Positions 855 to 15,654 of a DNA stretch of 64,000 bases are shown here, piece after piece (the first letter of the stretch is position 1; each line of letters starts with the position of its first letter). Made by a program: the position numbers and the translations under genes. Source of the DNA: Escherichia virus TH47; sequence record MT446416.1. One strand, given 5' to 3'. The notes under the pieces are model-generated. The model had not been told where the DNA came from. It made no database searches and saw only the letters and a list, made by a program, of their open reading frames with translations.

Positions 855-913
855 GGGGAAGTTGTTTCCCCTCTCGATGAAAAACATTATACGCCAATTG
901 AGATAGTTTGCAA
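855..913 (-). promoter_or_regulatory. early promoter + 5'-UTR stem-loop module
   Basis: minus strand TTGCAA-N16-TATAAT, then hairpin GGGGAAnnnnnTTCCCC before RBS. Confidence 0.6.
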
Positions 914-1002
914 GTACTTTTTAAAAATAGTTTTCAGTACTCAATACTTATATAATAGATACACTTATGCACCCGGTGGGCTAGTGAGCTATCTCTCAAT
1001 GA

Positions 1003-1037
1003 ATATATAATAGCAAAATGGCTGACCGAAGTCAACC
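1003..1037 (-). promoter_or_regulatory. terminator-promoter cassette (copy a)
   Basis: minus-strand hairpin GGTTGAC-TTCG-GTCAGCC then T-rich tract; TTGACT inside stem serves as -35 for downstream TATTAT. Confidence 0.55.
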
Positions 1038-1048
1038 ACTTTTTTCAT

Positions 1049-1189
1049 TTATTTTTTAGCTTTTAGAATCGCCGCCTTTCGCGTCATGCCTTGCTTAATG
1101 TACTCCTTTACTTTCGCTTTACGTGCTTTCGCTTTATTTGCTTTCGTAAATGCCGAACAACTTTTATAGTTTAAACCTGTTGGATTCAT
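1049..1189 (-). CDS. small basic protein (46 aa)
   Basis: ATG directly after stop of upstream peptide gene (TAAATG); below ORF-track cutoff; followed by cassette terminator. Confidence 0.45.
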   Translation of the reverse strand: MNPTGLNYKSCSAFTKANKAKARKAKVKEYIKQGMTRKAAILKAKK

Positions 1190-1279
1190 TTAAATCACCA
1201 TAAAGAATAGATAGGTTACTAACAACGCCGCGATCAATGCACCGATCACCGCCGAACTGTAATAAGCAAATGATTTCAT
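1190..1279 (-). CDS. hydrophobic peptide (29 aa)
   Basis: ATGA start/stop overlap with upstream gene; single predicted transmembrane helix. Confidence 0.4.
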   Translation of the reverse strand: MKSFAYYSSAVIGALIAALLVTYLFFMVI

Positions 1280-1428
1280 TTTTTAGCCTGGAAGTAATGT
1301 TTAATTTGTGCGGCGGTCAGTGCACAATTTCGCAGGAAGTTTTCTGTATAACTGCGGCGAGTACTGAAAGAAAATTGACCTTTGCCGTTGCCGATAGTAA
1401 CATCAAACCGAGCGTTGTATTGTTTCAT
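1276..1428 (-). CDS. small protein (50 aa)
   Basis: ATG with GGAGA RBS; first gene behind module at 1448-1508. Confidence 0.45.
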   Translation of the reverse strand: MKQYNARFDVTIGNGKGQFSFSTRRSYTENFLRNCALTAAQIKHYFQAKK

Positions 1429-1447
1429 TTTGATTCTCCTTGTATCA

Positions 1448-1508
1448 GGGAGGAACCATTTCCCCCCCCTCTATGTAAAACATTATACAGTACTGAAAAC
1501 TAATTGCA
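1448..1508 (-). promoter_or_regulatory. early promoter + 5'-UTR stem-loop module
   Basis: TTGCAA-N16-TATAAT and GGGAGGAACCATTTCCCCCC hairpin. Confidence 0.6.
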
Positions 1509-1709
1509 AGTATTATTTTCTAAAAAATGATTGTATGCTGAATCAACCACTCTTTCGATAACATACGCCAACGGCCCGTATCCAACTACATGACTACAAT
1601 AGAAAGGACTACGATTAGAATCATCGTATGCAAATACTTTTTCAGGATCTGCATCAATCACATACATATTAACCTCTAAGATGTCGATCTTATCCTGTAC
1701 AGTAAGCAT
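1500..1709 (-). CDS. hypothetical protein (69 aa)
   Basis: internal ATG with AGGT RBS directly after stop of 1711..1962; the longer ORF-track version overlaps the neighbour. Confidence 0.45.
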   Translation of the reverse strand: MLTVQDKIDILEVNMYVIDADPEKVFAYDDSNRSPFYCSHVVGYGPLAYVIERVVDSAYNHFLENNTCN

Positions 1710-1710
1710 A

Positions 1711-1962
1711 TTAATTACCTTTTTCAATGTTTGATAATTCTTCCCAAAAACTTCCCGGATCAATATTATCATAATCCCCTGTAACGTCCTGTAACGCATT
1801 CTCAGGCTGTTTAACGGCTGGGGTAGCCATAGCCATTGCCTGGACTTGTTCGACGCTATAACGCTCATATAGGCGGCATTCTTCCGGTGTTAACATAGCA
1901 TCAATGCGTTTCATTGGTTTAATGATGCTTTCAACTTCATTCAGTACTTGATTAACGTTCAT
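1711..1962 (-). CDS. hypothetical acidic protein (83 aa)
   Basis: ATG with GAGGA RBS. Confidence 0.6.
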   Translation of the reverse strand: MNVNQVLNEVESIIKPMKRIDAMLTPEECRLYERYSVEQVQAMAMATPAVKQPENALQDVTGDYDNIDPGSFWEELSNIEKGN

Positions 1963-2013
1963 GGTATAATCCTCAATATAAGCGGCCTAAATCGACCGCT
2001 AACGATGTTTTGA

Positions 2014-2283
2014 TTAATAGGTGTATGGTTGACGCTCAAACAATGATTGCACGTTGTACGCCCCGCTAATGGGCTTCGCTGGTATGTCGATCTTATATTT
2101 CTCACGCTTAAAGATAATAAAACGGCAATTGTTCTTAACATCAAAATTGATTGAACGTTCCAGGAGTTTTCCATCGTGCACAAATACAAGATAACCGCTC
2201 GCTACTTGTTTTGTAGTACTGGTTGCAACCATTGACCGCCTAACATGCGTACCTGCATCGATTAAAGTACTGATATTTTTCAT
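2014..2283 (-). CDS. hypothetical protein (89 aa)
   Basis: ATG with AGAGGA RBS; promoter-like region and hairpin upstream (2290-2350). Confidence 0.6.
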   Translation of the reverse strand: MKNISTLIDAGTHVRRSMVATSTTKQVASGYLVFVHDGKLLERSINFDVKNNCRFIIFKREKYKIDIPAKPISGAYNVQSLFERQPYTY

Positions 2284-2363
2284 TTTACTATCCTCTTAAT
2301 TTGATTTAATTTCTTTCCCCTATGCAGACACTATATCAAAGTATCTGCATAAAGTAAAGCTAA

Positions 2364-2708
2364 TTAAAGATCTTTTTTGCGTTTAACATCAGTTACCGAA
2401 CTGTAAACAGTGATATTATTGTCACGGCAAAAACGGGAAAGATAAGAACCGCGTAAAAACTCTTTACCTTCCATATTAATAACCTTGCTAAATTCTTCCA
2501 TTGCTACAGTGTCAAAGTGATCCCCATAGCCATATTGGAACGGCACGTTTACTACTTCAATAAATTCGCCATTGATTTCAACATCTACCGTTAAAGAGAA
2601 ATAAGTATTACCATAAGACGCCTGGAACCAACGCCGGGCTGCAATATGTACAACTTCAACAGAAGACAGGTTGATGTTTTGTGCTGTGATAGTGTTGATG
2701 ATAGCCAT
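2364..2708 (-). CDS. hypothetical protein (114 aa)
   Basis: ATG with AAGAGGAA RBS; module upstream. Confidence 0.65.
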   Translation of the reverse strand: MAIINTITAQNINLSSVEVVHIAARRWFQASYGNTYFSLTVDVEINGEFIEVVNVPFQYGYGDHFDTVAMEEFSKVINMEGKEFLRGSYLSRFCRDNNITVYSSVTDVKRKKDL

Positions 2709-2726
2709 TTTTTGTTTCCTCTTAGT

Positions 2727-2782
2727 GGGGGAACCATTCCCCTTGATGTAATGTATTATACTTTATCTGATTTACTTTGCAA
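2727..2782 (-). promoter_or_regulatory. early promoter + stem-loop module
   Basis: TTGCAA-N16-TATAAT; hairpin GGGGGAACCATTCCCC. Confidence 0.6.
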
Positions 2783-2790
2783 GTACTTTT

Positions 2791-3018
2791 TTAATTTAAT
2801 TCATCCAGGCAAAGGATACGTTCTACACCTAAATCAGTTAAACTAATAGACGGCACTTGATAGGTTTCAATGTATGCTACACTTGCCCACTGACCGAACT
2901 CATTAACGGCCCAGGTATCCATTGCAAAATGCAATTCCGCACCTGCCTTGTTGGTAATGACTGCAACTACTTGTTCGTTGCCAGTAGTACCAGATACGCG
3001 AGTAATGATAATAGCCAT
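2791..3018 (-). CDS. hypothetical protein (75 aa)
   Basis: ATG at 3018 downstream of module; ORF-track N-terminal extension would run through the promoter module. Confidence 0.55.
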   Translation of the reverse strand: MAIIITRVSGTTGNEQVVAVITNKAGAELHFAMDTWAVNEFGQWASVAYIETYQVPSISLTDLGVERILCLDELN

Positions 3019-3038
3019 TGTTTTGATTCCTTTTATTT

Positions 3039-3103
3039 GGAGGGGAAACTGTTTCCCCCCCTCTCGATGTAAAACATTATACGCTAATCTCTTTATAGTG
3101 CAA
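3039..3103 (-). promoter_or_regulatory. early promoter + stem-loop module
   Basis: TTGCAC-N16-TATAAT; hairpin GGAGGGGAAACTGTTTCCCCCC. Confidence 0.6.
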
Positions 3104-3253
3104 GTACTTTTTATTACTTTTTGCAAAATACTTTAAACGCTCTCAATCGCTCTATAACAACATTAACGCCACCAGCTAGGGAAATGCATCAGATATTCAG
3201 TTTAATGCGTTAGAATCGTTTCTAGGCGGTGCTGGTGGCCTGGTAAACGGTAA

Positions 3254-3282
3254 ACACAAAAAATCCCACTGTTTAAGGTGGG
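3254..3282 (-). terminator. rho-independent terminator
   Basis: minus-strand hairpin CCCACCTTAAACAGTGGG followed by T-run, just after stop of 3306..3788. Confidence 0.6.
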
Positions 3283-3305
3283 CTAGTGATTCAGTACTTT
3301 AATTG

Positions 3306-3788
3306 TTATGCTTCAACTTTGCGATGAGCTTCGATCCATTCCTCGCGAGTCAATCCGCTTTCTTTGATAGCATCCAGTACTACCGAAATGCAGTTACCAC
3401 GCACCGGAATCAGATATTCTTCCCCGTTATCAAGTACTACCGCTACACGTTCTTGAATCCATTTTTTAGGCTTAGACTCCGGCTTATCTTCCCCATACTT
3501 AACCGCCAGGGCTTTTTGTGCCATCTCGGTAACTACTTCCATATCCAGCCCATCTACTACCGCCTGGATACTTTCAATTGTTGCTTGTAGTTCTGCTTCA
3601 CGGGCCGCCTTCGCTGCTTCAATCTCTGCCGCTTTATTTGCTTGTAGTTCTTTCGCAGTACTGTAAGCGATGTTAAAATTATTGCGAACCGCTTTCATGG
3701 TATCGTTATCCAGTTCAGCCAGGATCTCTGCCGCTACGTTAGTTTCATTTGCTACCAGTGCTTTGATGAATGATTTGATGTTAGCCAT
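3306..3788 (-). CDS. hypothetical coiled-coil protein (160 aa)
   Basis: ATG at 3788 with GAGGA RBS 8 nt upstream (ORF-track start is a TTG further up); Ala/Glu/Lys-rich heptad-like N-terminal half. Confidence 0.6.
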   Translation of the reverse strand: MANIKSFIKALVANETNVAAEILAELDNDTMKAVRNNFNIAYSTAKELQANKAAEIEAAKAAREAELQATIESIQAVVDGLDMEVVTEMAQKALAVKYGEDKPESKPKKWIQERVAVVLDNGEEYLIPVRGNCISVVLDAIKESGLTREEWIEAHRKVEA

Positions 3789-3889
3789 TAGATAAATCCT
3801 CAATTAAAGTTTAGTTTACGTTCATTAGTGTATCAAAGTTTAATCGACGTGTCCAGTTTTTCGTTCGACTTACTGGCGGTCTACTTAGT

Positions 3890-3939
3890 GTTCCCCGTCT
3901 TGATGTAATACATTCTACGCCTTTTTGCGGTAATGTCAA
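3890..3939 (-). promoter_or_regulatory. early promoter (degenerate module)
   Basis: TTGACA-N17-TAGAAT on minus strand; -35 abuts the stop codon of the HNH gene. Confidence 0.5.
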
Positions 3940-4500
3940 CTATCTTTTTGAATATTTTTTAATGTATCTCATAATCGCTGGCGGTGTAGTATTATACCTT
4001 TCAGCTAGTATAATTGAGTTAGCATCATGTGAATATGGTTTATACAGTTGTATAACTTCGTTAATCTCTTTTTCAGTTAGTTTTGTCCTAACATGCCTTA
4101 TACCTTCACTCTCATACTTCACTATTTTTTTAATAGGCGTTGCGTCGTCATGTATTCCGGTATCGTGTGCGTGTATTATGTTTTCCTTTCCGGTTGACCA
4201 TTCCAAATTACTGTAATGATTATTACTTTTATTTCTATCCTTATGATTAACCTGGACTTTCTTTCTTTTTGTTTTTTGTGCCCATTCTATTTGTGCAGGT
4301 GTCGGAGGGGGTAGATAGTTGGATGCAACCAATCTTTGAACATACTCAAAATGTTTTGATTTGTCTTCTCTTACAAGCGTTAATCTATGATACCCATCAG
4401 GGCGAATTGTTGGAGAAAGAATATTACTACCATAACGCCTAACATCCCCATACTCACTAATTTCATAAAGGGGATTCTCTTTTAATTGTTTCCATTCCAT
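3940..4500 (-). CDS. HNH homing endonuclease (I-HmuI/I-TevIII-like)
   Basis: N-terminal MEWKxLK..YEISEYG..DGYHRLTL and HNH core VNHKDRNKSNNHYSNLEWSTGKEN resemble the I-HmuI family (from memory). Confidence 0.8.
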   Translation of the reverse strand: MEWKQLKENPLYEISEYGDVRRYGSNILSPTIRPDGYHRLTLVREDKSKHFEYVQRLVASNYLPPPTPAQIEWAQKTKRKKVQVNHKDRNKSNNHYSNLEWSTGKENIIHAHDTGIHDDATPIKKIVKYESEGIRHVRTKLTEKEINEVIQLYKPYSHDANSIILAERYNTTPPAIMRYIKKYSKR

Positions 4501-4529
4501 TGATTTGATCCTTTTAGTTTCTCCTTTGT

Positions 4530-4574
4530 ATTATATCACACAAAAACAAAAAAAGCCCACTGTTTAAGGTGGGC
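4530..4574 (-). promoter_or_regulatory. terminator followed by extended -10 promoter
   Basis: hairpin GCCCACCTTAAACAGTGGGC + T-run, then TGTGATATAAT and RBS of the HNH gene. Confidence 0.55.
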
Positions 4575-4581
4575 TAGTGAT

Positions 4582-4881
4582 TTATAAACAGTTAATTACT
4601 CCTGTGTGCGTTACTTTCTCAGTATCCATTACAGTGACCGAACCGCGTTTAGTACTGGCATCATAATAAATTGTTGTGCTACCTTTCGCATCTTCTTCAT
4701 GGAACGGGCCGTTTTTAAATGCTTCTGGCTGGATCTCTAGATCCTTTAAAACAATATCGCCAGTTCTTTCTTCGGTCATTGCAACAGTGCACTGAATGAA
4801 TTTTTCACTACTTACATCTAACGACGCATTAACAGCGAAAGAGGAAACAGATAAAGCCAGGGAGATGATTGCTACTTTCAT
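4582..4881 (-). CDS. secreted small protein (99 aa)
   Basis: ATG at 4881 with AAGGA RBS; N-terminal signal-peptide-like MKVAIISLALSVSSFAVNA. Confidence 0.6.
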   Translation of the reverse strand: MKVAIISLALSVSSFAVNASLDVSSEKFIQCTVAMTEERTGDIVLKDLEIQPEAFKNGPFHEEDAKGSTTIYYDASTKRGSVTVMDTEKVTHTGVINCL

Positions 4882-4901
4882 TTGATTATCCTTAGTTACC
4901 A

Positions 4902-4955
4902 GGGGAACCGTTCCCCCTATGTAAAACATTATACGCGTTTAAAAACTATTATCAA
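4902..4955 (-). promoter_or_regulatory. early promoter + stem-loop module
   Basis: TTGATA-N16-TATAAT; hairpin GGGGAACCGTTCCCC. Confidence 0.6.
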
Positions 4956-4989
4956 GTACTTTAATATAAAAGTATTTGAAAAATAATTG

Positions 4990-5018
4990 TTGACAACTGC
5001 ATCCAGTACTGGCATAAT
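4990..5018 (+). promoter_or_regulatory. plus-strand sigma70-like promoter (CCAGTACTGG class)
   Basis: TTGACA-N17-CATAAT with CCAGTACTGG in spacer; back-to-back with minus module. Confidence 0.5.
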
Positions 5019-5024
5019 ACCTAC

Positions 5025-5118
5025 ATAAAGACAAAACAGTCTCCAACCCACCGGGTGCATAGATCCGTCTATTAAATGATTCAGTACTGCAAAATAAAGG
5101 GGATCAATTGATCCCCTC
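5025..5118 (+). ncRNA. candidate small RNA
   Basis: runs from promoter 4990-5018 through CCCACCGGGTGCA box (5047-5059) to perfect palindromic hairpin GGGGATCAATTGATCCCC (5099-5116); no ORF. Confidence 0.3.
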
Positions 5119-5122
5119 TGTA

Positions 5123-5344
5123 TTACTTAGTAAGGTATAAACAGAAGTCACCTTTATTTGCTACGCCGCCAGTGTAACGCGATGAATAGTTAGAAATATC
5201 TTGTACTTCTGCTATTACCAGTGTATCATCATTCATTTCGTCGCAGAAGCAAACGGCTGGATCTTTTACGCCGATATTGTCGGCATGTTCCCGCATAGAT
5301 TTAACCAGTGCTTCCAGTTGAGAAAGAGTAGTGATATTAGCCAT
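5123..5344 (-). CDS. hypothetical protein (73 aa)
   Basis: ATG at 5344 with GAGGA RBS; terminated by hairpin 5099-5116 + T-run. Confidence 0.55.
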   Translation of the reverse strand: MANITTLSQLEALVKSMREHADNIGVKDPAVCFCDEMNDDTLVIAEVQDISNYSSRYTGGVANKGDFCLYLTK

Positions 5345-5363
5345 TGTATTTTCCTCATTACCA

Positions 5364-5422
5364 GGGAGAACCATTTCTCCCCTCTATGTAAACTATTATA
5401 CAGTACTGGAAACTAATTGCAA
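5364..5422 (-). promoter_or_regulatory. early promoter + stem-loop module
   Basis: TTGCAA-N16-TATAAT; hairpin GGGAGAACCATTTCTCCC. Confidence 0.6.
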
Positions 5423-5534
5423 GTACTTAATGGTAAGATCCGCAACGGTTGCAGTAGTTTTATTTGTTCGATCATGATGCTTACTCCTGGTTAAAGGCGG
5501 GAACCATTCCCCGCCATTGTCACAGTACTGAATA

Positions 5535-5774
5535 TTACATTCCAACCATTGCAGCACGGATCGCAGTAGTGCTATACTTGAATCCGTCCGGCGTTGTAGT
5601 AGTACCGTTGGCTTTTAATCTGCGGTACATACATTCCGCTGCAATATCTTTCGTTTTACTTTGAGCGATGCAATTTTGAGCAATCCGGTACAATGATTCA
5701 TCGTTATTGATCCAAAGGCTTACATTCCAATGAGTTTTGTTTTTGTGTCCGTTGTAAGTTTTAGTACTAGCCAT
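5535..5774 (-). CDS. hypothetical protein (79 aa), paralog of 7563..7790
   Basis: shared motif T(K)T(F/Y)NGHKNxxHWNVSLWINNDESLY and C-terminal AAMVGM; GAGGA RBS. Confidence 0.7.
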   Translation of the reverse strand: MASTKTYNGHKNKTHWNVSLWINNDESLYRIAQNCIAQSKTKDIAAECMYRRLKANGTTTTPDGFKYSTTAIRAAMVGM

Positions 5775-5795
5775 TTTTTAATCCTCTTATATAGT

Positions 5796-5852
5796 GGGGA
5801 ACTATTCCCCACCTGATGTAAAGTATTATACGCTTTTAAACTTAGTTTGCAA
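5796..5852 (-). promoter_or_regulatory. early promoter + stem-loop module
   Basis: TTGCAA-N16-TATAAT; hairpin GGGGAACTATTCCCC; near-identical to module 7153-7209. Confidence 0.6.
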
Positions 5853-5863
5853 GTACTTTTTAA

Positions 5864-6475
5864 TTAATATGCGATTGATTCTACTACGCCATCAATAACA
5901 TTGAATTGATATTCGTTACCCTCAATCAGTGCCGTAATGTTTTCAGTAGTGAATTGATCCTTATATGCATTCTCTAAATCACGGTAAAACTTGCGTGACA
6001 ATTCACGAATAGTATCAGTTAGTAGTTTCTCAAGCTCATTAACTAACGTTTCTTGTTTTGAGGTTAAATCAGTGTAAGCCGATTCAATGTACCCGCTTAC
6101 AGTGTTCTCATGCGAGTAATGGGAGTGAGATCGCTTTACACTCATCGCCAAATCATCTTCATTCAGCAGGTGACGGATTGAGCGATACTTAGTTAATGCT
6201 CTTACCTTGCGTAAAAACTTCACTGCGTCAACGTGGTCAGTACTGATTGATGCACCGTCACCCTGGGACCAAAAACCACTGAATTGTATTTCAGCGTCAT
6301 TAATGCCATATTCTGGTAGTACTGTTTCTTTATAGTATTCAATTTCACTTTCAGAAAAATAATCGTCGTTTGTGTTTTTTTCACGTTCCCGAACCAGTTC
6401 GATAGCTGACGTTTTTTGTTCTGCGTTCAATTCAGAAAAATCCATAACATAAGTAGTAGTAGTGATAGTTTTCAT
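5864..6475 (-). CDS. hypothetical acidic protein (203 aa)
   Basis: ATG with GAGGG RBS; Asp/Glu-rich; two tandem promoters upstream. Confidence 0.65.
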   Translation of the reverse strand: MKTITTTTYVMDFSELNAEQKTSAIELVREREKNTNDDYFSESEIEYYKETVLPEYGINDAEIQFSGFWSQGDGASISTDHVDAVKFLRKVRALTKYRSIRHLLNEDDLAMSVKRSHSHYSHENTVSGYIESAYTDLTSKQETLVNELEKLLTDTIRELSRKFYRDLENAYKDQFTTENITALIEGNEYQFNVIDGVVESIAY

Positions 6476-6507
6476 TTTGTAACCCTCATTCAGTAGTTGA
6501 TGTAAGT

Positions 6508-6535
6508 ATTATACGCTTTTAAAAACAATTGTCAA
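6508..6535 (-). promoter_or_regulatory. sigma70-like promoter
   Basis: TTGACA-N16-TATAAT directly upstream of 5864..6475. Confidence 0.55.
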
Positions 6536-6586
6536 ACTATTTTATCAGGGGAGTTTTTCGTATGCCTTACTCCTGGGCTACTCAAC

Positions 6587-6653
6587 GGGGAGTTACTTAT
6601 TTCGTTCCCCGTCCTGATGTAATACATTATACGCCGTTAAACATAGTATGCAA
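6587..6653 (-). promoter_or_regulatory. early promoter + stem-loop module (second, tandem)
   Basis: TTGCAT-N16-TATAAT; hairpin GGGGAGTTACTTATTTCGTTCCCC; no ORF between it and the next promoter. Confidence 0.5.
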
Positions 6654-6696
6654 GTACTTTTTAAAATAGTTTTCAGTACTGAATAGTAAAAAGGTA

Positions 6697-6725
6697 TTGA
6701 CAGCACTATCCAGTACTGGCATAAT
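6697..6725 (+). promoter_or_regulatory. plus-strand promoter (CCAGTACTGG class)
   Basis: TTGACA-N17-CATAAT; followed by CCCACCGGGTGCA at 6747-6759. Confidence 0.5.
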
Positions 6726-6840
6726 ATACCCCATGACAACAGCTAACCCACCGGGTGCACAATTGTAACTGTACTAAACTACTTTTTCTATAGATACACT
6801 CCCGCACCCCGTGGGCCAAATTGTTCGTTTCAATAGATAC

Positions 6841-6869
6841 ATTATGCCAGTACTGACAAAATAAGTCAA
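6841..6869 (-). promoter_or_regulatory. minus-strand promoter (CCAGTACTGG class), convergent with 6697-6725
   Basis: TTGACT-N17-CATAAT on minus strand; followed by inverted CCCACGGGGTGCGG box (6804-6817). Confidence 0.5.
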
Positions 6870-6899
6870 TACTGGCAATTGTAAAGATTTGTAAACTAC

Positions 6900-7130
6900 T
6901 TATACTGCAATCGCGTCCAGGCTATAATAATAATAAGTGCCGTATTGGTGTACTTTATTACCTTTTATTTCAGTACTGAATGAATCCGAACGATTAGCAT
7001 ATGATGTTAATTTAAAGTACTTTGCTTTACTAATACGTTGCCATACACCGCAGATCCGCTGTAAGTAAGTAGTTTTATTAGTGGTAGTATCTTTTACGGT
7101 TTTAACTTCGGTCATATACATATTAGCCAT
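6900..7130 (-). CDS. hypothetical protein (76 aa)
   Basis: ATG at 7130 with AAGAGGA RBS; module upstream. Confidence 0.6.
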   Translation of the reverse strand: MANMYMTEVKTVKDTTTNKTTYLQRICGVWQRISKAKYFKLTSYANRSDSFSTEIKGNKVHQYGTYYYYSLDAIAV

Positions 7131-7152
7131 TTTTTTAATCCTCTTATGTAGT

Positions 7153-7209
7153 GGGGAAGTATTCCCCATCTGATATAAAGTATTATACGCTTTTAAACTT
7201 AGTATGCAA
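7153..7209 (-). promoter_or_regulatory. early promoter + stem-loop module
   Basis: TTGCAT-N16-TATAAT; hairpin GGGGAAGTATTCCCC. Confidence 0.6.
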
Positions 7210-7217
7210 GTACTTTT

Positions 7218-7481
7218 TTATAGTACTGCAATCTTTTTAGTACGGTACACGGTAACGCGATTGCCCTTGCGGTCGTGCTTTATTTCTACTACTCGCCGCG
7301 ATACACTATCAGGACTTTTTAACGCCGCCAACCAGTACTGTAAAGATCTGGCTTTACTTTGCTTTACTACCGCCCAACGTTTACCACGTTCCGATTGTCC
7401 GCCCATATCTTTAAACGTCGCCCCGTCCAGACGTGCGGCGATCCGTGCTTGTTCACGCGTCACAAAGTACATAATATTCAT
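7218..7481 (-). CDS. hypothetical basic protein (87 aa)
   Basis: ATG start; promoter-like TTGCAC...TATAAT upstream. Confidence 0.55.
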   Translation of the reverse strand: MNIMYFVTREQARIAARLDGATFKDMGGQSERGKRWAVVKQSKARSLQYWLAALKSPDSVSRRVVEIKHDRKGNRVTVYRTKKIAVL

Positions 7482-7562
7482 GCTGTTACCCCATCGTTGA
7501 CGTATAAAAGAAATCTATTATAAAGTACTATCACCGTGCAATAGTACTTTAAATATATTCTA

Positions 7563-7790
7563 TTACATTCCAACCATCGCCGCACGCACGCTTGATTTGC
7601 TATAACGTGCCCCATCAGGCGTGTGAGTACCTAAAAGGCGTAACATCCGCTCAACCGCTTTATCTCGCGTGTTGGTGCTTTTAATACTTTCCAGGGCCAA
7701 TTGGTACAGTGATTCATCGTTATTGATCCAAAGGCTTACATTCCAATGGTTGTAGTTTTTATGGCCGTTGAAAGTTTTAGTAGTAGTCAT
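7563..7790 (-). CDS. hypothetical protein (75 aa), paralog of 5535..5774
   Basis: paralog motifs as above; AAGAGGAA RBS. Confidence 0.7.
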   Translation of the reverse strand: MTTTKTFNGHKNYNHWNVSLWINNDESLYQLALESIKSTNTRDKAVERMLRLLGTHTPDGARYSKSSVRAAMVGM

Positions 7791-7810
7791 TTTTAATTCC
7801 TCTTAAGTGC

Positions 7811-7870
7811 AGCGGGAACCATTCCCGCTCTCGATGTAATACATTATACGCTATTTGATAGTACTGTCAA
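7811..7870 (-). promoter_or_regulatory. early promoter + stem-loop module
   Basis: TTGACA-N16-TATAAT; hairpin AGCGGGAACCATTCCCGCT; about 50 nt identical to module 8270-8330. Confidence 0.6.
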
Positions 7871-7883
7871 ACTAATTTTTAAC

Positions 7884-8246
7884 TTATTCGTAAATTTTGC
7901 CACTGTCAGCCCATACCAGGAAACGAGGCATATTATCCCATGCATCTTGTTTTAAATTTAAACCGTGTAATACTTCTGTACTTTCCATTCCTGGTACTGG
8001 TTTACTATACACCGCGAACATTTCACCCATATACTGATAAGCCATCGTTAAATCACTGGCGATCATCTTATGGATCATCGCATCAAGCATCACGGTAGCG
8101 GCGTATTGTTCACGCTTAAGCGGCAACATTGCAATAAGTCCACGATAAGCTGAAATGTGAATTTTTACCGTTTCTGCCGGAAGATCTTTCATCTCGTCGC
8201 GGAAGTTAACCAGGTTAGCAATAATTTTATTGATTTGTGTCGCCAT
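7884..8246 (-). CDS. hypothetical protein (120 aa)
   Basis: ATG with RBS; module upstream. Confidence 0.65.
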   Translation of the reverse strand: MATQINKIIANLVNFRDEMKDLPAETVKIHISAYRGLIAMLPLKREQYAATVMLDAMIHKMIASDLTMAYQYMGEMFAVYSKPVPGMESTEVLHGLNLKQDAWDNMPRFLVWADSGKIYE

Positions 8247-8269
8247 CGTTTTTAATCTCTCTTAAAGTG

Positions 8270-8330
8270 CAGCGGGAACCATTCCCGCTCTCGATGTAAT
8301 ACATTATACGCCGTTAAACATAGTATGCAA
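8270..8330 (-). promoter_or_regulatory. early promoter + stem-loop module
   Basis: TTGCAT-N16-TATAAT; hairpin AGCGGGAACCATTCCCGCT. Confidence 0.6.
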
Positions 8331-8380
8331 GTACTTTCTACAAATACTTTTAAAATAGTTTTCTTTCTATATAGGGGAAC

Positions 8381-8432
8381 TATCTTTCAGTACTATCTTT
8401 CAGTACTATCATTCAGTACTATCATTCAGTAC
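8381..8432. repeat. 4 x 13-bp direct repeat TATC(T/A)TTCAGTAC
   Basis: four contiguous units read directly. Confidence 0.85.
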
Positions 8433-8596
8433 TGAATCAATCCACTAAATCATCCCTATACCCCGTAAAACGGCCTCAGACGCATTCTAACGCATTAATA
8501 CACCTAAGCTATACATTTGCACCATTCCAATCATTCCAGGGCTTTACGGGCCGTTGAAACGCGTTAAATTATTTTCAATTATTTTGTTTTTAGGTA

Positions 8597-8624
8597 TTGA
8601 CTTGATCCTGAAAAAGCGTATAAT
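8597..8624 (+). promoter_or_regulatory. plus-strand sigma70-like promoter
   Basis: TTGACT-N16-TATAAT; CCCACAGGGTGCGG box about 30 nt downstream. Confidence 0.5.
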
Positions 8625-8813
8625 TACTACATAAGCCGGACACAAGGCACTAACCCACAGGGTGCGGAATTACGCCCAAAATTCAAGATATAAAAAAAGG
8701 ATACACTCCCGCACCCTAGCAGGTCAACGCACTTTCTCAGTACTGAAATATAGTACCATAGTACTTGCCAGGATAGCAAGCAAATTAATTAAAACTTTTT
8801 TGCTTCCAGGGTA

Positions 8814-8841
8814 TTGCTTTATTTTTTCAGTACTGTATAAT
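8814..8841 (+). promoter_or_regulatory. plus-strand promoter
   Basis: TTGCTT-N16-TATAAT; CCCACCGGGTGCA box at 8870-8882. Confidence 0.45.
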
Positions 8842-8937
8842 AGTTTCATCAAGTCGAGAAAGACTCAAGCCCACCGGGTGCATAGTTACGCCCAAAATTC
8901 AGTACTGAAAAAATTTTTAAAATATCTGTCCAGGCCG

Positions 8938-8966
8938 TTGACATTGCCCCCAGTTTATAAGATAAT
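8938..8966 (+). promoter_or_regulatory. plus-strand promoter
   Basis: TTGACA-N17-GATAAT; two GGGGAA...TCCCC-type hairpins downstream. Confidence 0.45.
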
Positions 8967-9059
8967 GATTCCAGATTCAGAAAAATCTAACTCCAGATAC
9001 TGCGGGGAAACTATCCCCACGCGGTAGGGGAACTATTGGAAAAAACAAAATAAAATTTT

Positions 9060-9200
9060 GATTTAGCCGTCTATACTTCCAGACGTGTAACCATCTAGCC
9101 GTTTAGCCGTCCAAACGTCTAGCCATCCAGCCATCCAGAAATCTAGCCGTTTAGCCGTCTAGATGGATAGCCATCTTTACTTCCATACTTCTGGAGGTCT
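9060..9200. repeat. iteron cluster (TAGCCRTY x about 9) with CCAAAATCC repeats just downstream
   Basis: tagccgtc / tagccgtt / tagccatc units within about 130 bp, interleaved with tctaga-type palindromes. Confidence 0.8.
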
Positions 9201-10099
9201 AGACATATCTACGTCCAAAATCCACCCAGGGTTACTACACCCAAAATCCGTCAGTACTATACCATAGATCTATCTTTTGAAAGGGAGTATTCAGTACTGC
9301 CATCATAGCCCTCACTATGTTACCCTAGGAGGATGAAGACTATCATGTAGTACTGAATACTGTTAGAGGGAATCCACCAGCTTGTGCTGGTGGCATAATG
9401 CTTTAGATTAAAATCAGTACTGACACCATTCTGTTAATATCAGTACTGTTATTACGATTTTCATATGAGGTTCAAAAAGATGTACCACCACAGGAGGAAC
9501 TATCTTTTCTGTACTGTCTCACGACAGGAGGTAGAGTAAATGAATTGTTCGCAGCAACTCATCTCTCTATGTAGAACATTATACAGTACTGAATCATAAT
9601 GTCAATAACTTTCTTTCACCATTCAGTACTGATATTCTTGAGAACTACCCGTCTACAAACATCATTATATCCCACAAATCATAAACGTCCCAACGTAAAT
9701 TTCAACTTTCGAAGATCCAACTTTTATTTCATAGGTACTCCAAAATTTTTAGGATCGAGATTTAGGATGGAGTACTAACCAACTTTTTGCTGGAGCCTCA
9801 AGGGGTAATTGAATTTTACCCCGAAGGGTAAAAGGGTAATTGAAATTAAGGTGAAAGTAATAATTCAGTACTAATCATTGCGTGATTACTTTTGATTACA
9901 TTTGATGTAATTTGCAAAATGGAAAAGGAGCTTGGAAACTAAAAAGTACGGTAGACTTCCTCTGCCTACTTAGTGGGATATCGACACCTTCAGTACTGAA
10001 TACTTTTGGGGCAGTACTGCTACGTTCTTGATTAAACGTGCACATTCCTGTACTCTATTACACTCTAGTACTCACTACTGATCAGTACTGATCACTACA

Positions 10100-10150
10100 G
10101 TGATTATAAATGATTACTTAAATGTTTATATATGATTACTTATGATTACT
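10100..10150. repeat. ATGATTACTTA direct repeats (3 copies)
   Basis: read directly. Confidence 0.7.
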
Positions 10151-10154
10151 TATG

Positions 10155-10175
10155 ACAAAGAGAAGCCAAAAGCTT
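10155..10175 (-). terminator. terminator of small-gene array
   Basis: hairpin GAGAAGC-nnnn-GCTTCTC followed by T-rich tract on minus strand. Confidence 0.5.
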
Positions 10176-10312
10176 CTCTGTAGAGTTACGGGGTTTAGCC
10201 TGGAGAGAATCCTAGTGATCGCATTTGTCCAGGCTGAATTTTAACAATTCGCCTGTACATAAAGGTTGTTCACTAGGAGCTTCCCCAGTCTCTATGTGCT
10301 CTATATGTTGAA

Positions 10313-10522
10313 TTACTTCCTATATATAAGTATTAACATATAGTAGTACTGATTATGCTGTACATTCTCTTTAATATTATAAGGGTCTATAGCAATCTCG
10401 GTACATCTGTTAAATGCATATCTATTAAATGCCAGTACTATTAGATTGTTAACCCATGCTTGTTCGTTTTCTTTTAGTTTACTTATATAGTACTCTTTAT
10501 ACTCTTTATACTCTTTATGCAT
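10313..10522 (-). CDS. small leader-family protein (69 aa)
   Basis: N-terminal MHKEYKEYKEYYISKL (9-bp unit repeated 3 times); C-terminal hydrophobic YxLILIY. Confidence 0.6.
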   Translation of the reverse strand: MHKEYKEYKEYYISKLKENEQAWVNNLIVLAFNRYAFNRCTEIAIDPYNIKENVQHNQYYYMLILIYRK

Positions 10523-10535
10523 AGTATTATCTCTA

Positions 10536-10718
10536 TTAATATGATAGTACTAGTGTTAGTACTGAGCACAATTGTTCTTTATAGTTCTTAGGGTATATAG
10601 AATCTTTTATGCACTCATTGAAGTGCCATAGGTATAATCTTGGGTCGCATTCTTTATATATTTTTACGGGGACGAATGTTAGTTTTCTTATATAGAAGTC
10701 TTTATGTTCTTTATTCAT
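10536..10718 (-). CDS. small leader-family protein (60 aa)
   Basis: MNKEHKDFYIRKL leader. Confidence 0.6.
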   Translation of the reverse strand: MNKEHKDFYIRKLTFVPVKIYKECDPRLYLWHFNECIKDSIYPKNYKEQLCSVLTLVLSY

Positions 10719-10920
10719 ATAGGAATAGTATACCTATGATGCCTGAGTACAGGTTAGTACTGTTATTATTGTCGTTTGCGTTTAAAGTCATTTGAATACA
10801 ATTATTGTAGCATAATCTGCCGAAATATGTATCAGTACTTAAAGGTGGTGTAGTTCTTAGAAACATTTGTTCTGATGTACTGAGGTGTTTGGAGTAGTAT
10901 TCTTTATGTTCTTTATTCAT
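10711..10920 (-). CDS. small leader-family protein (69 aa)
   Basis: MNKEHKEYYSKHL leader; body paralogous to 11285..11491 (CYNNCIQ...YSGIIGILFLYE). Confidence 0.65.
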   Translation of the reverse strand: MNKEHKEYYSKHLSTSEQMFLRTTPPLSTDTYFGRLCYNNCIQMTLNANDNNNSTNLYSGIIGILFLYE

Positions 10921-10925
10921 ATTAG

Positions 10926-11111
10926 TTAGTGTCTGTATATAAGTAATAGTAAGAATACGTACTGCACCTGTTCATCTTTAGTATTGAGTACTGTACGTAT
11001 TGCGTCATGGAACAAGAATATAGTACTTGGGTCATTAGAATTTAAGGGGTTTACGGGGACGGCGTGTTTGTAGTTCCCTTTAACAAATTGTATATAGTAT
11101 TCTTTATACAT
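10926..11111 (-). CDS. small leader-family protein (61 aa)
   Basis: MYKEYYIQFV leader. Confidence 0.6.
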   Translation of the reverse strand: MYKEYYIQFVKGNYKHAVPVNPLNSNDPSTIFLFHDAIRTVLNTKDEQVQYVFLLLLIYRH

Positions 11112-11112
11112 A

Positions 11113-11292
11113 TTAGTACCTGAATATTAGGGCGAGAATGTAGTACATATAATTTTGGTTCACAGCACAGTCAGTATGGTCAATGAATTGTTGGGTCTTT
11201 TTCTTATCCTTGAAATCTATTGGGTTTAGTAGTATAAGCATTTGGGAGTTTATATCCAGATGGCTTACGTAGAATTCTTTATAGTTATTCAT
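11113..11292 (-). CDS. small leader-family protein (59 aa)
   Basis: MNNYKEFYVSHL leader; ATGAATAA start/stop overlap with upstream gene; below ORF-track cutoff. Confidence 0.5.
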   Translation of the reverse strand: MNNYKEFYVSHLDINSQMLILLNPIDFKDKKKTQQFIDHTDCAVNQNYMYYILALIFRY

Positions 11293-11491
11293 AGAAGAAT
11301 ATTAGTCCTATTACACCTGAGTACATAATATTTTTGTTATTGTATTCTAATGCGTCTAGAGTACTACGTATACAATTATTAAAGCAATCTCTGGCGTGTT
11401 GTGTATCTAAACGTAAAGGTGATACACTCCTTAGAAACATTTGTTCTTCGTTGCTGAGGTATTTGGTGTAGAATTCTTTCTGTTCGTTCAT
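11285..11491 (-). CDS. small leader-family protein (68 aa)
   Basis: MNEQKEFYTKYL leader; CFNNCIR...YSGVIGLIFFYE. Confidence 0.65.
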   Translation of the reverse strand: MNEQKEFYTKYLSNEEQMFLRSVSPLRLDTQHARDCFNNCIRSTLDALEYNNKNIMYSGVIGLIFFYE

Positions 11492-11501
11492 ATTGGCCTC
11501 T

Positions 11502-11690
11502 TTAGTACACGAAAGCTAGGTACAGTACATGATACAGTACTTGATTATAGTTGTAATAATTTATCACGCATTTAGTGCACGTAATGAAGTAGTCTTTTTC
11601 GTAGTTTATTTCTATACCGCGAGGTTCATCTTCTAACAGATTACCTTGAAGGTGCGGTGGTAAATCTTTTATGTAGTATTCTTTATACAT
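11502..11690 (-). CDS. small leader-family protein (62 aa)
   Basis: conserved start MYKEYYIKDL at 11690; ORF-track N-terminal extension is read-through of the upstream copy. Confidence 0.55.
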   Translation of the reverse strand: MYKEYYIKDLPPHLQGNLLEDEPRGIEINYEKDYFITCTKCVINYYNYNQVLYHVLYLAFVY

Positions 11691-11691
11691 A

Positions 11692-11882
11692 TTAGTACCT
11701 GAATATAAGTAGGATAGTGTTATATAGTTGGTCATAACTACTACTATTTTCTATACTGCGTTCTATGCAGTTATTGAATCCCAGTACTGCCAAATCGTTA
11801 TCCAGGGGGGGACTTTATATCTGGCGTAGTATTCAAAAATGCTGGGGAGAAATTGTGTGTAGTATTCTTTGTGGTTGTTCAT
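11692..11882 (-). pseudogene. frameshifted leader-family member (poly-G7 tract 11805-11811)
   Basis: starts MNNHKEYYTQFL; frame breaks at the homopolymer; one extra C/G restores a 63-aa ORF ending ...GFNNCIERSIENSSSYDQLYNTILLIFRY. Confidence 0.5.
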
Positions 11883-11892
11883 ATTGTTCTCT

Positions 11893-12075
11893 TTAGTACT
11901 TATATATTAGGGCGAGGATGTAGTACAGTTTATATATTCTATCCTCGTACATTAGGGTGTACTTAGTACATTCTTGAAACATTGTTTTTGCGTCATCTTT
12001 TATGCCCAATGCAACGTTTGGTATATGGCTCTGTAGATGCATTGGAAGTTTCTCTATGTAGTATTCTTTATACAT
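11893..12075 (-). CDS. small leader-family protein (60 aa)
   Basis: conserved start MYKEYYIEKL at 12075 (ATGTATAA overlap with stop of 12068..12739). Confidence 0.55.
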   Translation of the reverse strand: MYKEYYIEKLPMHLQSHIPNVALGIKDDAKTMFQECTKYTLMYEDRIYKLYYILALIYKY

Positions 12076-12739
12076 AGTTTGAAATATACGTAATGAGGTG
12101 ATGAATTTTCTTATCAGTACTGATAAGTTCCTGTACATGTTTTGTTAGTTTGTACGCGTTTTTATAGAGTCCTGGATTATCGATTACAGTACTGTACATG
12201 AATTCTTCTTCTGGTGTTAATTCTTTGTTTTGTAGTTCTTTTAGGAATTGCAGTACTGTAATAGTTTCTTCTGTACGTTGCTGTTGGAAGAAATGCATGT
12301 TATCGTGTACTTTTTCTGAACCAATGCAGTACATATCGCCGATTTGGAATTGTGCTGTACGGATATCATGGGTGCTATTACAATTCCCGAAGAAGTATAC
12401 ATTCCCGAAAGATAGAATTATAGTGCACGGGATATTATCCAGGTGCATATAGATATAGATAGATGCGTCCTCTAGTGCTTTTGTGCTGGTATTAGTACTC
12501 AATACTTTTAAATCAGTATTATAGATATTCATATAATGAACAGCTATATTATTTTTCTTCATGTACAATTCAAGGTTCTTTGATACGTTAACTCCATTTG
12601 TACTGGTTTTTTTACTTTTCTTTAGGTTCTTTAGTACATTAGGGTGATAAGTATATGCATTAGTAATAGATTCAGCCTGGATGGATTGCAAGTACTTAAA
12701 GTGCTGTAGGTATCGTTTACTTTGTGGATTGAGTTTCAT
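12068..12739 (-). CDS. long leader-family protein (223 aa)
   Basis: N-terminal KRYLQHFKYL leader-like; C-terminal domain paralogous to 21657..22307. Confidence 0.6.
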   Translation of the reverse strand: MKLNPQSKRYLQHFKYLQSIQAESITNAYTYHPNVLKNLKKSKKTSTNGVNVSKNLELYMKKNNIAVHYMNIYNTDLKVLSTNTSTKALEDASIYIYMHLDNIPCTIILSFGNVYFFGNCNSTHDIRTAQFQIGDMYCIGSEKVHDNMHFFQQQRTEETITVLQFLKELQNKELTPEEEFMYSTVIDNPGLYKNAYKLTKHVQELISTDKKIHHLITYISNYV

Positions 12740-12750
12740 ATTGGTTTCCT

Positions 12751-12930
12751 TTATATAGATGCGAGTGCGAGGATTTCCCTGTAGGGATTATCTTGTGTTA
12801 GTGCGTGATGAATGCAGCTATTGAGATTAATATTTTTAGTACTGTTAGTTGCTAGGTTGTAGTACTTCACGAAGGTGTCGTACATGAAACGGTCTTTAAT
12901 GCTTATGTGTTCTATATAGTATTCTTGCAT
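12751..12930 (-). CDS. small leader-family protein (59 aa)
   Basis: conserved start MQEYYIEHI at 12930. Confidence 0.5.
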   Translation of the reverse strand: MQEYYIEHISIKDRFMYDTFVKYYNLATNSTKNINLNSCIHHALTQDNPYREILALASI

Positions 12931-12995
12931 ATTATTCCTTAGATTTAGATTAGTTTTAGTACTTCTCTGTACGTGTACTTTTCGTTTTGTGCTTC

Positions 12996-13118
12996 TACTG
13001 TACATGATAGAAAGTATCGTTTTTATCTCTTTTGTTCCCGACTGTGTAGTACCTTTGGAATTGATTATAAATGTATCTATCTTTGTGCTGAAGTTTATAG
13101 ATATAGAATTCTTGCATA
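12996..13118 (-). pseudogene. truncated leader-family copy
   Basis: MQEFYIYKL... ORF of 40 codons; flanking sequence duplicates 12921-12980. Confidence 0.35.
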
Positions 13119-13125
13119 GAGTACC

Positions 13126-13311
13126 TTAGATAGAGATTAGTTTTAGTACTTCAATATATGTGCGGTACTCTGCTTTAATTAAATTTGTACACACTGTAAG
13201 GGAACTTCTTTGTATAAGTTTATTGCCGCTTTTATACGCATTTCTCCACACATAGAGATGAGATCTTTCTGGCATAGATAGTTTATTTGTATAGTACTCA
13301 AATGTATTCAT
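13126..13311 (-). CDS. small leader-family protein (61 aa)
   Basis: start MNTFEYYTNKL at 13311. Confidence 0.5.
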   Translation of the reverse strand: MNTFEYYTNKLSMPERSHLYVWRNAYKSGNKLIQRSSLTVCTNLIKAEYRTYIEVLKLISI

Positions 13312-13321
13312 AGTATTCTCT

Positions 13322-13507
13322 TTACATATCAATAAGTTTCAGTACTGCTCTGTACGTGTACTTAGTTGTTAGTGTTTCTTTTATAGCAGTACAGAAGTAA
13401 TGTTGTTTGTCTCTAGTACTGACGCGTTTGTAGTACCATACATGGGAGTTGTGGCTGTACTTGTCCCTGTCGGATAGTTTTTGGTAATAGTAGCTTTTAT
13501 GATTCAT
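13322..13507 (-). CDS. small leader-family protein (61 aa)
   Basis: MNHKSYYYQKL leader. Confidence 0.55.
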   Translation of the reverse strand: MNHKSYYYQKLSDRDKYSHNSHVWYYKRVSTRDKQHYFCTAIKETLTTKYTYRAVLKLIDM

Positions 13508-13618
13508 TGTAATGTAATTAGCCTTATTATGTTAAAGTACTCGGTCCCTGGTACACCTTGTAGAATATTATCAACTACATTTATTTGGTGCAGGATGAGT
13601 ACATTCGGTGCGGATCTT

Positions 13619-13717
13619 TTAAGGTTTTTTTAAAGTACTGAATTCTTGTTTAAGGATGTTCTGCACATCTTTAGGGAGAATATCTAAGTAGTACTGATGA
13701 ATGTTCATAGTTTTCAT
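13619..13717 (-). pseudogene. truncated leader-family copy
   Basis: MKTMNIHQYYLDILPKD... stops after 32 codons; resembles N-terminus of 13916..14128. Confidence 0.35.
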
Positions 13718-13728
13718 ATAGTACTCTT

Positions 13729-13914
13729 TTAGAACTTAAAGATGAGGTTCATGATAGATAAGTACTTAGTTTCAGGAAATTGATGTTCTATTGCATAACG
13801 TGTCGCCAGTCTGAAGTCAAATTTATAAAAGGGAGTATTCATATCCAGAGGTTCATTGGGGAATGAATCTCGGTATTGCTTGTGCAGCTTACTACAGTAG
13901 AATTCTTTATACAT
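13729..13914 (-). CDS. small leader-family protein (61 aa)
   Basis: MYKEFYCSKL leader. Confidence 0.6.
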   Translation of the reverse strand: MYKEFYCSKLHKQYRDSFPNEPLDMNTPFYKFDFRLATRYAIEHQFPETKYLSIMNLIFKF

Positions 13915-13915
13915 A

Positions 13916-14128
13916 TTAGTGCTCGATTAATAGGGTAAGGATGTAATAGTATTGCATACTTTCTACCCCTTGTAAAGCATTTCTTATTTTATTATTCCTG
14001 TACGAGTTCAAGAGTTTAGGACAATGTTTGAGGTTTATATAATTATTTTGTGTATACAGTAGGCTTTCTCGTAGACCTTTTGTTGGTAGTGCATCGATGT
14101 AGTACTGTTCAATGTTCATAGTGTTCAT
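13916..14128 (-). CDS. small leader-family protein (70 aa)
   Basis: MNTMNIEQYYIDAL leader. Confidence 0.55.
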   Translation of the reverse strand: MNTMNIEQYYIDALPTKGLRESLLYTQNNYINLKHCPKLLNSYRNNKIRNALQGVESMQYYYILTLLIEH

Positions 14129-14352
14129 AGAGCTACCAGTACTAAGATTTTTGATAATTGTTTATTGCTATCCCCGCAGATGTTGCTGTGTAAAATACTC
14201 GCGGTGAGGGTATCAAGTGCACTGTTCAGCATAAGGTTACATCCAGTACTGTTATGTGTTTTTAGCTCTATCAGCCACGAACTATCCGCGAGAAACTTCG
14301 CGTACTCTAGTTCAGTTAGAGTATTGATGTAGTACTTAAGTGTAGTTGTCAT
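14125..14352 (-). CDS. small leader-family protein (75 aa), first gene of array
   Basis: MTTTLKYYINTL; AAGGAG RBS; promoter 14378-14406. Confidence 0.6.
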   Translation of the reverse strand: MTTTLKYYINTLTELEYAKFLADSSWLIELKTHNSTGCNLMLNSALDTLTASILHSNICGDSNKQLSKILVLVAL

Positions 14353-14377
14353 GTACAGTTCTCCTTATATTCCTTCT

Positions 14378-14406
14378 ATAGTACACCAGTACTGAAAGGA
14401 TGTCAA
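14378..14406 (-). promoter_or_regulatory. promoter of small-gene array
   Basis: TTGACA-N17-TACTAT on minus strand, divergent from the first RCC1-like gene promoter. Confidence 0.55.
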
Positions 14407-14410
14407 GGGT

Positions 14411-14450
14411 TTTGTTTATGGGGTAAATATGATATAATGAATAAAGGAGG
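14411..14450 (+). promoter_or_regulatory. promoter/RBS cassette of RCC1-like gene 1
   Basis: TTGTTT-N16-TATAAT then AAGGAGG 5 nt before ATG; same TATAAT-AAGGAGG cassette upstream of genes 3, 4 and 6. Confidence 0.5.
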
Positions 14451-14455
14451 GAAAT

Positions 14456-15577: not shown

Positions 15578-15585
15578 TAATAGGT

Positions 15586-15616: not shown

Positions 15617-15654
15617 AAATACTATATAATTATTTTAATTTTGGAGATTTAATC

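Follow-up and report, generated by a model that had tools for sequence, protein, structure and literature searches.

We conclude that the 186-aa HNH gene described here is quite probably a freestanding homing-endonuclease cassette of the I-HmuI type, which arrived in the early-gene region of one Asteriusvirus lineage. The element belongs to a known and very common class; what is added here are its empty sites, its breakpoints, two sister cassettes and the overlap of its tail with promoter-like DNA. The window, which is the whole 64,000-nt stretch of DNA that was analysed (Escherichia virus TH47, sequence record MT446416.1), comes from an Asteriusvirus of the 121Q/PBECO4 group, coliphages of ~350 kb. 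For the 186-aa protein we infer endonuclease activity, a target site and homing. The features of the locus are all on the minus strand and are listed below.

4582 to 4881, minus strand: upstream resident gene of 99 aa (phrog_31669, function not assigned), found in all relatives
4554 to 4575, minus strand: intrinsic terminator hairpin of the 99-aa gene, AGCCCACCTTAAACAGTGGGCT, resident DNA common to the empty-site alleles
4530 to 4540, minus strand: TGTGATATAAT, promoter-like canonical extended -10 (TG-A-TATAAT)
3972 to 4539, minus strand: segment of 568 bp without nucleotide homology to any empty-site allele
4508 to 4513, minus strand: AAGGAT, Shine-Dalgarno-like, 8 nt 5' of the ATG
3940 to 4500, minus strand: HNH homing-endonuclease ORF, 186 aa, ATG start, NUMOD4 and HNH_3 domains
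3940 to 3971, minus strand: tail of the ORF, last 10 codons (MRYIKKYSKR) and stop, from the alignment with empty alleles
3912 to 3939, minus strand: resident sigma-70-type promoter of the 160-aa gene (TTGACA 3939-3934, 16-nt spacer, TAGAAT 3917-3912)
3306 to 3788, minus strand: downstream resident gene of 160 aa (phrog_27871, weak DUF3846 match), found in all relatives

The terminator hairpin of the 99-aa gene is GC-rich, has a folding energy of -12 kcal/mol (z = -3.2 relative to shuffles) and is followed by a T-run (TTTTTTTGTTTTTG), with the T-tract extending to 4540. The leader between TGTGATATAAT and the ATG of the HNH gene is 29 nt long. At the other end, the TAG stop codon (3940-3942) is immediately followed by TTGACA, and the promoter to which this box belongs agrees with the consensus at 11 of 12 positions. 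The first-pass annotation had described the stop as abutting the downstream TTGACA, and TAG indeed touches the -35 box. All of the elements that it had described are present, and the range that it had assigned, 3935-4574, is one base off at each end, since the -35 box occupies 3934-3939 and the hairpin 4554-4575.

The 186-aa protein was matched by Pfam HNH_3 (30.4 bits, cutoff 24.8) and NUMOD4 (27.4 bits, cutoff 23.4), and by HNH endonuclease families in PHROGs (best E 2e-29). In the PDB, I-HmuI (1U3E) was the sole significant match both by sequence (E 9.5e-9, residues 1-116) and by fold (E 3.7e-9, probability 1.00, 132 columns). The ORF and its domains lie well outside what chance would give, and the earlier description of an I-HmuI-like HNH gene of 186 aa holds. 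The NUMOD4 match covers residues 1-42, and strands were modelled at 3-53 with pLDDT >95 in an AlphaFold model that was built from 33 homologues (mean pLDDT 86). The HNH beta-beta-alpha-metal motif aligns with the catalytic region of I-HmuI. Since residues including H86, N98 and N107 are invariant in the 33 homologues, along with D88, N93, N94, L99 and E100, the catalytic motif is intact as judged from the alignment. The C-terminal third was modelled as three helices (143-153, 162-168 and 173-184, pLDDT 68-91), while the fold alignment to 1U3E spans 132 columns only. As modelled, these helices (143-184) fit a helix-turn-helix (HTH); a search for a Pfam HTH domain in the protein found none.

I-HmuI of Bacillus phage SPO1 has the same domain order, with an N-terminal NUMOD4-type beta-sheet, the HNH beta-beta-alpha-metal motif and C-terminal helices, and the same MEWK start. 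The two proteins differ in that they are only ~30% identical, in that the catalytic His is preceded by Asp74 in I-HmuI and by Asn85 in the 186-aa protein, and in an additional IEWAQKTKRKKVQ insert in the latter. I-HmuI is encoded within a group I intron of a DNA polymerase gene. The window gene, in contrast, is intergenic and lies outside any self-splicing intron; a search of 2500-6000 with Rfam gave no match at E up to 1, to a group I intron or to any other family, and the gene is therefore freestanding. Apart from this gene, a second, unrelated HNH-type ORF (136 aa stop-to-stop; PF01844 E 2e-4, just above cutoff) was seen at the far end of the window, at 63556-63963 on the minus strand.

The flanks of the cassette matched 37 phage records at 84-94% identity, the collections offering no closer relative of the window, and 3972-4539 was covered by none of these 37 related Asteriusvirus records nor by any other phage record. 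As tblastn against 50,697 phage records gave no HNH homologue >38.5% identical, no Asteriusvirus relative has an orthologue anywhere in its genome. Seventeen relatives were fetched; in 15 of them the junction could be anchored, cut out and aligned, and all 15 carry a clean empty site with sharp breakpoints. Empty type (i) consists of the 99-aa gene, terminator, promoter and 160-aa gene (slurp01, JP4, 121Q, PBECO4, G17 and SD-2_S15), while in type (ii) an additional 76-aa gene separates the 99-aa gene from the terminator (ELP-22, phAPEC6, SHEFM2K, EC.P1, SP27, UE-S1, A4 and vB_Ec-M-J). The window allele is type (i) plus the HNH gene. A comparison with relatives lacking the insert had been proposed by the first-pass annotation, and it turned up the 15 empty sites; the outcome that was named there as speaking against a mobile cassette, all relatives carrying the gene at the same position, came out the opposite way, with the gene in 0 of 37.

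Homology breaks at 4539/4540 (after ...GGGCTTTTTTTGTTTTTGT) and at 3971/3972 (where it resumes with TGAGATAC...), and the window has 568 bp in place of ~13 bp (AGTATCGTAGTAC) in the empty alleles. The left joint lies within a common TTTTTGT run. The picture of a cassette inserted in an intergenic junction thus stands as regards its absence from the relatives, but the event was not a pure insertion, as the ~13 bp of resident DNA were replaced. It is plausible that the insertion left flanking expression undisturbed.

Several further searches returned no second copy of this allele. In a search of 5.8 billion protein clusters, the protein formed a cluster of one member, its source being one 352,450-bp NCBI contig, and the next best hit reached only 44% identity across 47% of the length. 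The locus was absent from the E. coli genome and plasmid collections, and a scan for the promoter of the 160-aa gene found no further empty sites. A packaging-associated HNH protein had also been considered as an identity for the gene product and was ruled out by domain type, early-region location and absence from relatives.

Two other differences between alleles were observed around the terminator. The 76-aa gene is an orphan without a PHROG match that 8 of the 15 aligned relatives carry and that the window and 6 relatives lack; its position (for example 2271-2501 in L002 and 2123-2353 in L003) corresponds to ~4576-4581 of the window. It is a second presence/absence polymorphism in the same intergenic spot, with the terminator stem as one boundary. 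The window also lacks 12 bp (TATAGTACTGAA, with a CTAG variant in JP4 and G17) at ~4576/4577 that are present in all six type (i) alleles. This gap follows the stop codon of the 99-aa gene and precedes the terminator, with the HNH joint ~40 nt away.

Two homologous cassettes were found in other RaK2-like jumbo phages. The first is a 175-aa ORF of Klebsiella phage KP13-7 (genus Alcyoneusvirus, 38.5-40% identity), and the second, the best homologue in IMG/VR, is a 162-aa ORF (41-46% identity, and 41-50% in the IMG/VR search) on a 359,777-bp contig, here L019, whose relatives include Salmonella phage 7t3 and Klebsiella phage fENko-Kae01. Their loci differ from that of the window and from one another. 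At the KP13-7 site ~575 bp are missing in RCIP0023, K64-1, RaK2 and Muenster, and at the L019 site 540 bp are missing in 7t3 and Kae01. The 5' ends of the cassettes read TTTTTGTGATATAAT in L019 and TTTTTTTGTTATATAAT in KP13-7, followed by AAAAGGAT 7-8 nt 5' of the ATG. At the 3' end, the TGA stop of L019 is the TGA within agTTGACA, so that the two overlap, and the TAA stop of KP13-7 lies 3 nt 5' of TTGACA. Cassettes of this kind can be written as TGTKATATAAT...AAAAGGAT...ATGGNATGG, and in all three the stop codon is 0-3 nt from, or overlaps, TTGACA. DNA identity between the window and L019 is 0.77 over promoter, ribosome-binding site (RBS) and start, 0.80 over the HNH motif and 0.83 over the stop/-35 end, against ~0.5 in the body.

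These comparisons suggest that the placing of the stop codon beside the -35 box is no accident. Among 80 IMG/VR loci of HNH_3 homologues, TTGACA at the stop codon was found only in L019, so the stop/-35 arrangement is particular to the cassettes of RaK2-like jumbo phages and not to HNH_3 genes generally. Scans of IMG/VR with patterns of the 5' and 3' ends recovered L019 only, a fixed-spacing pattern recovered none, and a metagenome scan for closer homologues gave ≤44% identity; three cassettes of this subfamily were found in all. KP13-7 carries TAATATTTGACAAGATTATTCAGTACTGC where its relatives carry AAAAGTACTTGCATAATTCTTTCAGTACTGC, and the flanks are 100% identical only from TTCAGTACTGC on. 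The KP13-7 cassette thus brought in TTGACA together with the start of the spacer, in place of the resident TTGCAT. As an observation on the two sister loci together, the -35 box is TTGCAT in HNH-less relatives and TTGACA in the HNH carriers KP13-7 and L019 (L007 3520-3560 against L099/L100 ~395-440, and L019 3478-3520 against L101 ~790-840).

In vB_Ec-M-J, the site corresponding to that of the window lies inside the annotated direct terminal repeat of 21.5 kb, and fEgEco12 has a comparable 21-kb repeat (PMC13070987). All three HNH sites are in regions that are annotated as long direct terminal repeats (~20 kb) in relatives, as seen in L018 (vB_Ec-M-J 5197-7627), in L102 (fENko-Kae01) and in Muenster hit H189. 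With its site in a terminal repeat, the cassette would be carried twice by a packaged genome.

The first-pass annotation had given the gene its own extended -10 promoter just past the terminator. The motif is there, and its conservation in the two homologous cassettes supports TGTGATATAAT as a promoter, but it has no usable -35 and as an 11-mer it is not above chance (7 matches with ≤1 mismatch in the window, 5.7 expected). L019 and KP13-7 have weak -35 boxes, GGGACA and TGAACA, respectively, which stand 16-17 nt 5' of TATAAT. In the window this position is occupied by the terminator stem, and hence only the extended -10 is left. TGT[G/T]ATATAAT is invariant across the three homologous cassettes (n = 3), and so is AAAAGGAT, which is followed by the ATG (n = 3). 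The best evidence for function is these conserved non-coding ends around proteins that are only 40-46% identical, and it suggests that the cassette promoter and RBS are functional. Hairpins that sequester the RBS occur in some homing endonuclease genes of T4; such a hairpin was sought in the 5' UTR of the window gene, and the fold found (-2.8 kcal/mol, z = +1.4) was no better than shuffled sequence.

The final ~33 nt of the ORF (ATGAGATACATTAAAAAATATTCAAAAAGATAG) encode MRYIKKYSKR, which is most of the predicted last helix. This tail aligns at 28 of 35 positions with G17 DNA (TGAGATACTTTAAAAATAGTTTTAAAAAAGTAG) lying 5' of the same -35 box, a score that was reached by 0 of 2000 shuffles. The tail was at first read as captured resident DNA, and this reading was weakened when the same tail was seen in L019 (KKYSK) and KP13-7 (AGATGCATTAA). 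In L019 the tail ...KKKYSKSS is encoded by AAATATTCCAAAAGCAG, while the KP13-7 tail corresponds to AGATACATTAA of the window. Because the tail is both part of the cassette and like A-rich upstream DNA, the right-hand joint can be placed only within 3940-3971. The origin of the tail is ambiguous: an ancestor may have absorbed an upstream region into its reading frame, or the likeness may merely have provided homology for integration.

Estrem et al. are said to have described UP elements with a proximal subsite AAAAAARNR. When compared with this subsite, the resident AAAAAAGTA agrees at every position and AAAAAGATA of the window at 8 of 9, and upstream-element function may survive in the window. 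The gene had been called wedged precisely between the terminator and the -35 box; the stop codon does touch the box, but the last 32 nt of the ORF are in, or mimic, the A-rich UP-like region upstream of the promoter.

The 160-aa gene is driven from one of many related promoters. At least 11 copies of a 62-nt promoter module (family D1) are present at 865-8343, the copy abutting the HNH gene being 3891-3952. The module consensus is approximately TTTTAAAAAGTAC-TTGCAT-N16-TATAAT-GTATTACATCRAG, followed by a GGGGAA...TTCCCC hairpin, and the regions upstream of the modules are A-rich. Hairpins of the CCCAC...GTGGG type are found at 4554-4575 and at 3265-3282. The modules are spaced by 0.3-1.3 kb, with one also at 9565-9611, and a 5' UTR hairpin GGGGAA...TTCCCC often comes next (families D1, D4 and D5). 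The HNH joints fall in the T-tract and 5' of the -35 box, and the boundary of the 76-aa polymorphism is at the terminator stem.

In T4-type phages, PeSLs join a stem-loop to a sigma-70-like promoter whose upstream region is AT-rich (PMC2839356, PMC4122927). The modules of the window are like PeSLs in being repeated, in combining these two elements and in lying beside small orphan genes; PeSLs mark boundaries of insertions and deletions, as the modules of the window may also do; by analogy, the polymorphism of the 76-aa gene at the terminator stem fits this picture. They are unlike PeSLs in phage family and in module sequence, and recombination at the window modules is what we infer. In RaK2-like phages, early and terminal-repeat regions have been reported to contain RpoD-like promoters accompanied by UP-like elements, and the freestanding HNH genes CBB_420, 528 and 535 are said to resemble genes of RaK2 and GAP32 (PMC5259590). 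These genes share the phage group and the element class with the window gene; the window protein is without a homologue >38.5% identical in the phage collection.

The preferred reading can be put as a sequence of steps. Host sigma-70 RNA polymerase would transcribe the HNH gene early from the extended -10 promoter, and the transcript would continue into the 160-aa gene, since the cassette has no terminator of its own. During mixed infection, the enzyme would nick or cut the intact terminator-promoter junction, or a nearby site, in relatives lacking the gene, and recombinational repair would copy the cassette into the cut allele. The first arrival probably used short homologies, namely TTTTTGT in the T-tract of the terminator and, 5' of the -35 box, the A-rich tail. 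The tail and the retained -35 box would keep the downstream promoter usable.

Freestanding homing endonuclease genes are reportedly treated by Edgell et al. 2010 (cited in PMC5259590) and include seg and mob of T4-like phages and F-TflI, F-TflII and F-TflIV of T5. The window gene is like these in being intergenic and variable between related phages, in having its own putative expression signals and, probably, in a spread by intronless homing, and it is unlike them in protein subfamily and host phage lineage. The window cassette seems further to differ from seg/mob and F-Tfl in a stop codon that touches the next -35 box and in an ORF tail that overlaps the upstream region.

Movement of the gene need not have depended on its product. 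It may be a passenger that was moved by recombination between terminator/promoter modules, as in the PeSL shuffling of T4, with the endonuclease uninvolved and maybe no longer active or site-specific. We regard this as unlikely, even though the site is one of the at least 11 copies of the 62-nt module in 8.3 kb, the unrelated 76-aa gene is polymorphic in the same spot with the terminator stem as boundary, and both cassette joints are in sequence that is common with the resident T-tract and the region 5' of the -35 box. Against it, the catalytic residues are intact. Promoter and RBS have also been kept between homologues with no more than 40-46% identity, an argument for expression of the gene and for selection on it. 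A self-spreading element would fit the finding that members of this HNH subfamily inserted independently three times, in three phage genera. Passenger movement and homing are in any case compatible and do not exclude one another. Loss in the relatives of a gene that was ancestral to the group is hardly credible. The ~13 bp that are present in the empty alleles and not in the window would be in line with it, but a replacement alone gives no direction; the gene is missing in every relative, across several species and two empty-site haplotypes, a remnant of the ORF was seen in none of them, and the KP13-7 and L019 homologues are at other loci and likewise unique to their genomes.

The nuclease might instead have been domesticated, so that it excludes co-infecting relatives, nicks host or phage DNA, or regulates the adjacent promoter module. 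The seg and mob genes of T4 cause marker exclusion, which offers a precedent. The DNA that encodes the recognition helix of the predicted HTH is like the region 5' of the promoter's -35 box, and the early-gene region is driven by host-type promoters (PMC5259590). We nevertheless hold domestication to be very improbable: the gene is missing in all 37 relatives and is therefore dispensable, it has no partner genes, and exclusion by cutting relatives would be the same chemistry as homing and hard to distinguish from it. The homing cassette thus remains the reading that we prefer.

A more specific form of the homing reading was also considered, namely that the three HNH genes are a subfamily specialised for RaK2-like terminator-promoter modules, with ends that mimic the T-tract and the UP-like region plus -35 box, and with the module as target. 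We put this forward tentatively, as a possibility with the balance against it. If it is true, such an element could insert at any one of dozens of modules and restore a functional promoter as it does so, and the DNA for the HTH recognition helix would double as the region contacted 5' of the -35 box. The same ends at three different promoter junctions suggest a way in which such elements could move to new sites without silencing of the neighbours. Apart from this proposal, the locus offers a clean natural freestanding homing endonuclease gene, a 568-bp cassette with defined junctions and 15 empty alleles as substrates. If the link with PeSL shuffling holds, it would help to account for the turnover of genes in the early regions that jumbo phages have in their terminal repeats; if the link fails, the gene is one more orphan homing endonuclease gene.

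Some repeats in the window were recorded separately. AGTACT, a palindrome, was counted 228 times where base composition predicts 21.7, most densely at 4000-16000, and the three most over-represented hexamers are GTACTG, CAGTAC and AGTACT. AGTACT-type motifs are located in promoter spacers (TTGACA N8 YAGTACTGTATAAT), hairpins and genes. The HNH insert contains 0 AGTACT against ~3.7 expected at the local density. The motif TAGTACTGA, which flanks the terminator on either side in empty alleles but is absent from the window, was considered as the target and dropped, as AGTACTG occurs ~110 times per strand in the window (3.6 expected). A literature search joining 'AGTACT' and 'jumbo phage' found no paper. 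Two short tandem arrays were also observed. Four tandem copies of GATAGTACTGAAW with a period of 13 lie at 8394-8433 on the minus strand, just 5' of a promoter module, and an array with an 8-nt period (CGTCTAGC / CATCCAGC, ~9 overlapping register copies) is present at 9068-9219.
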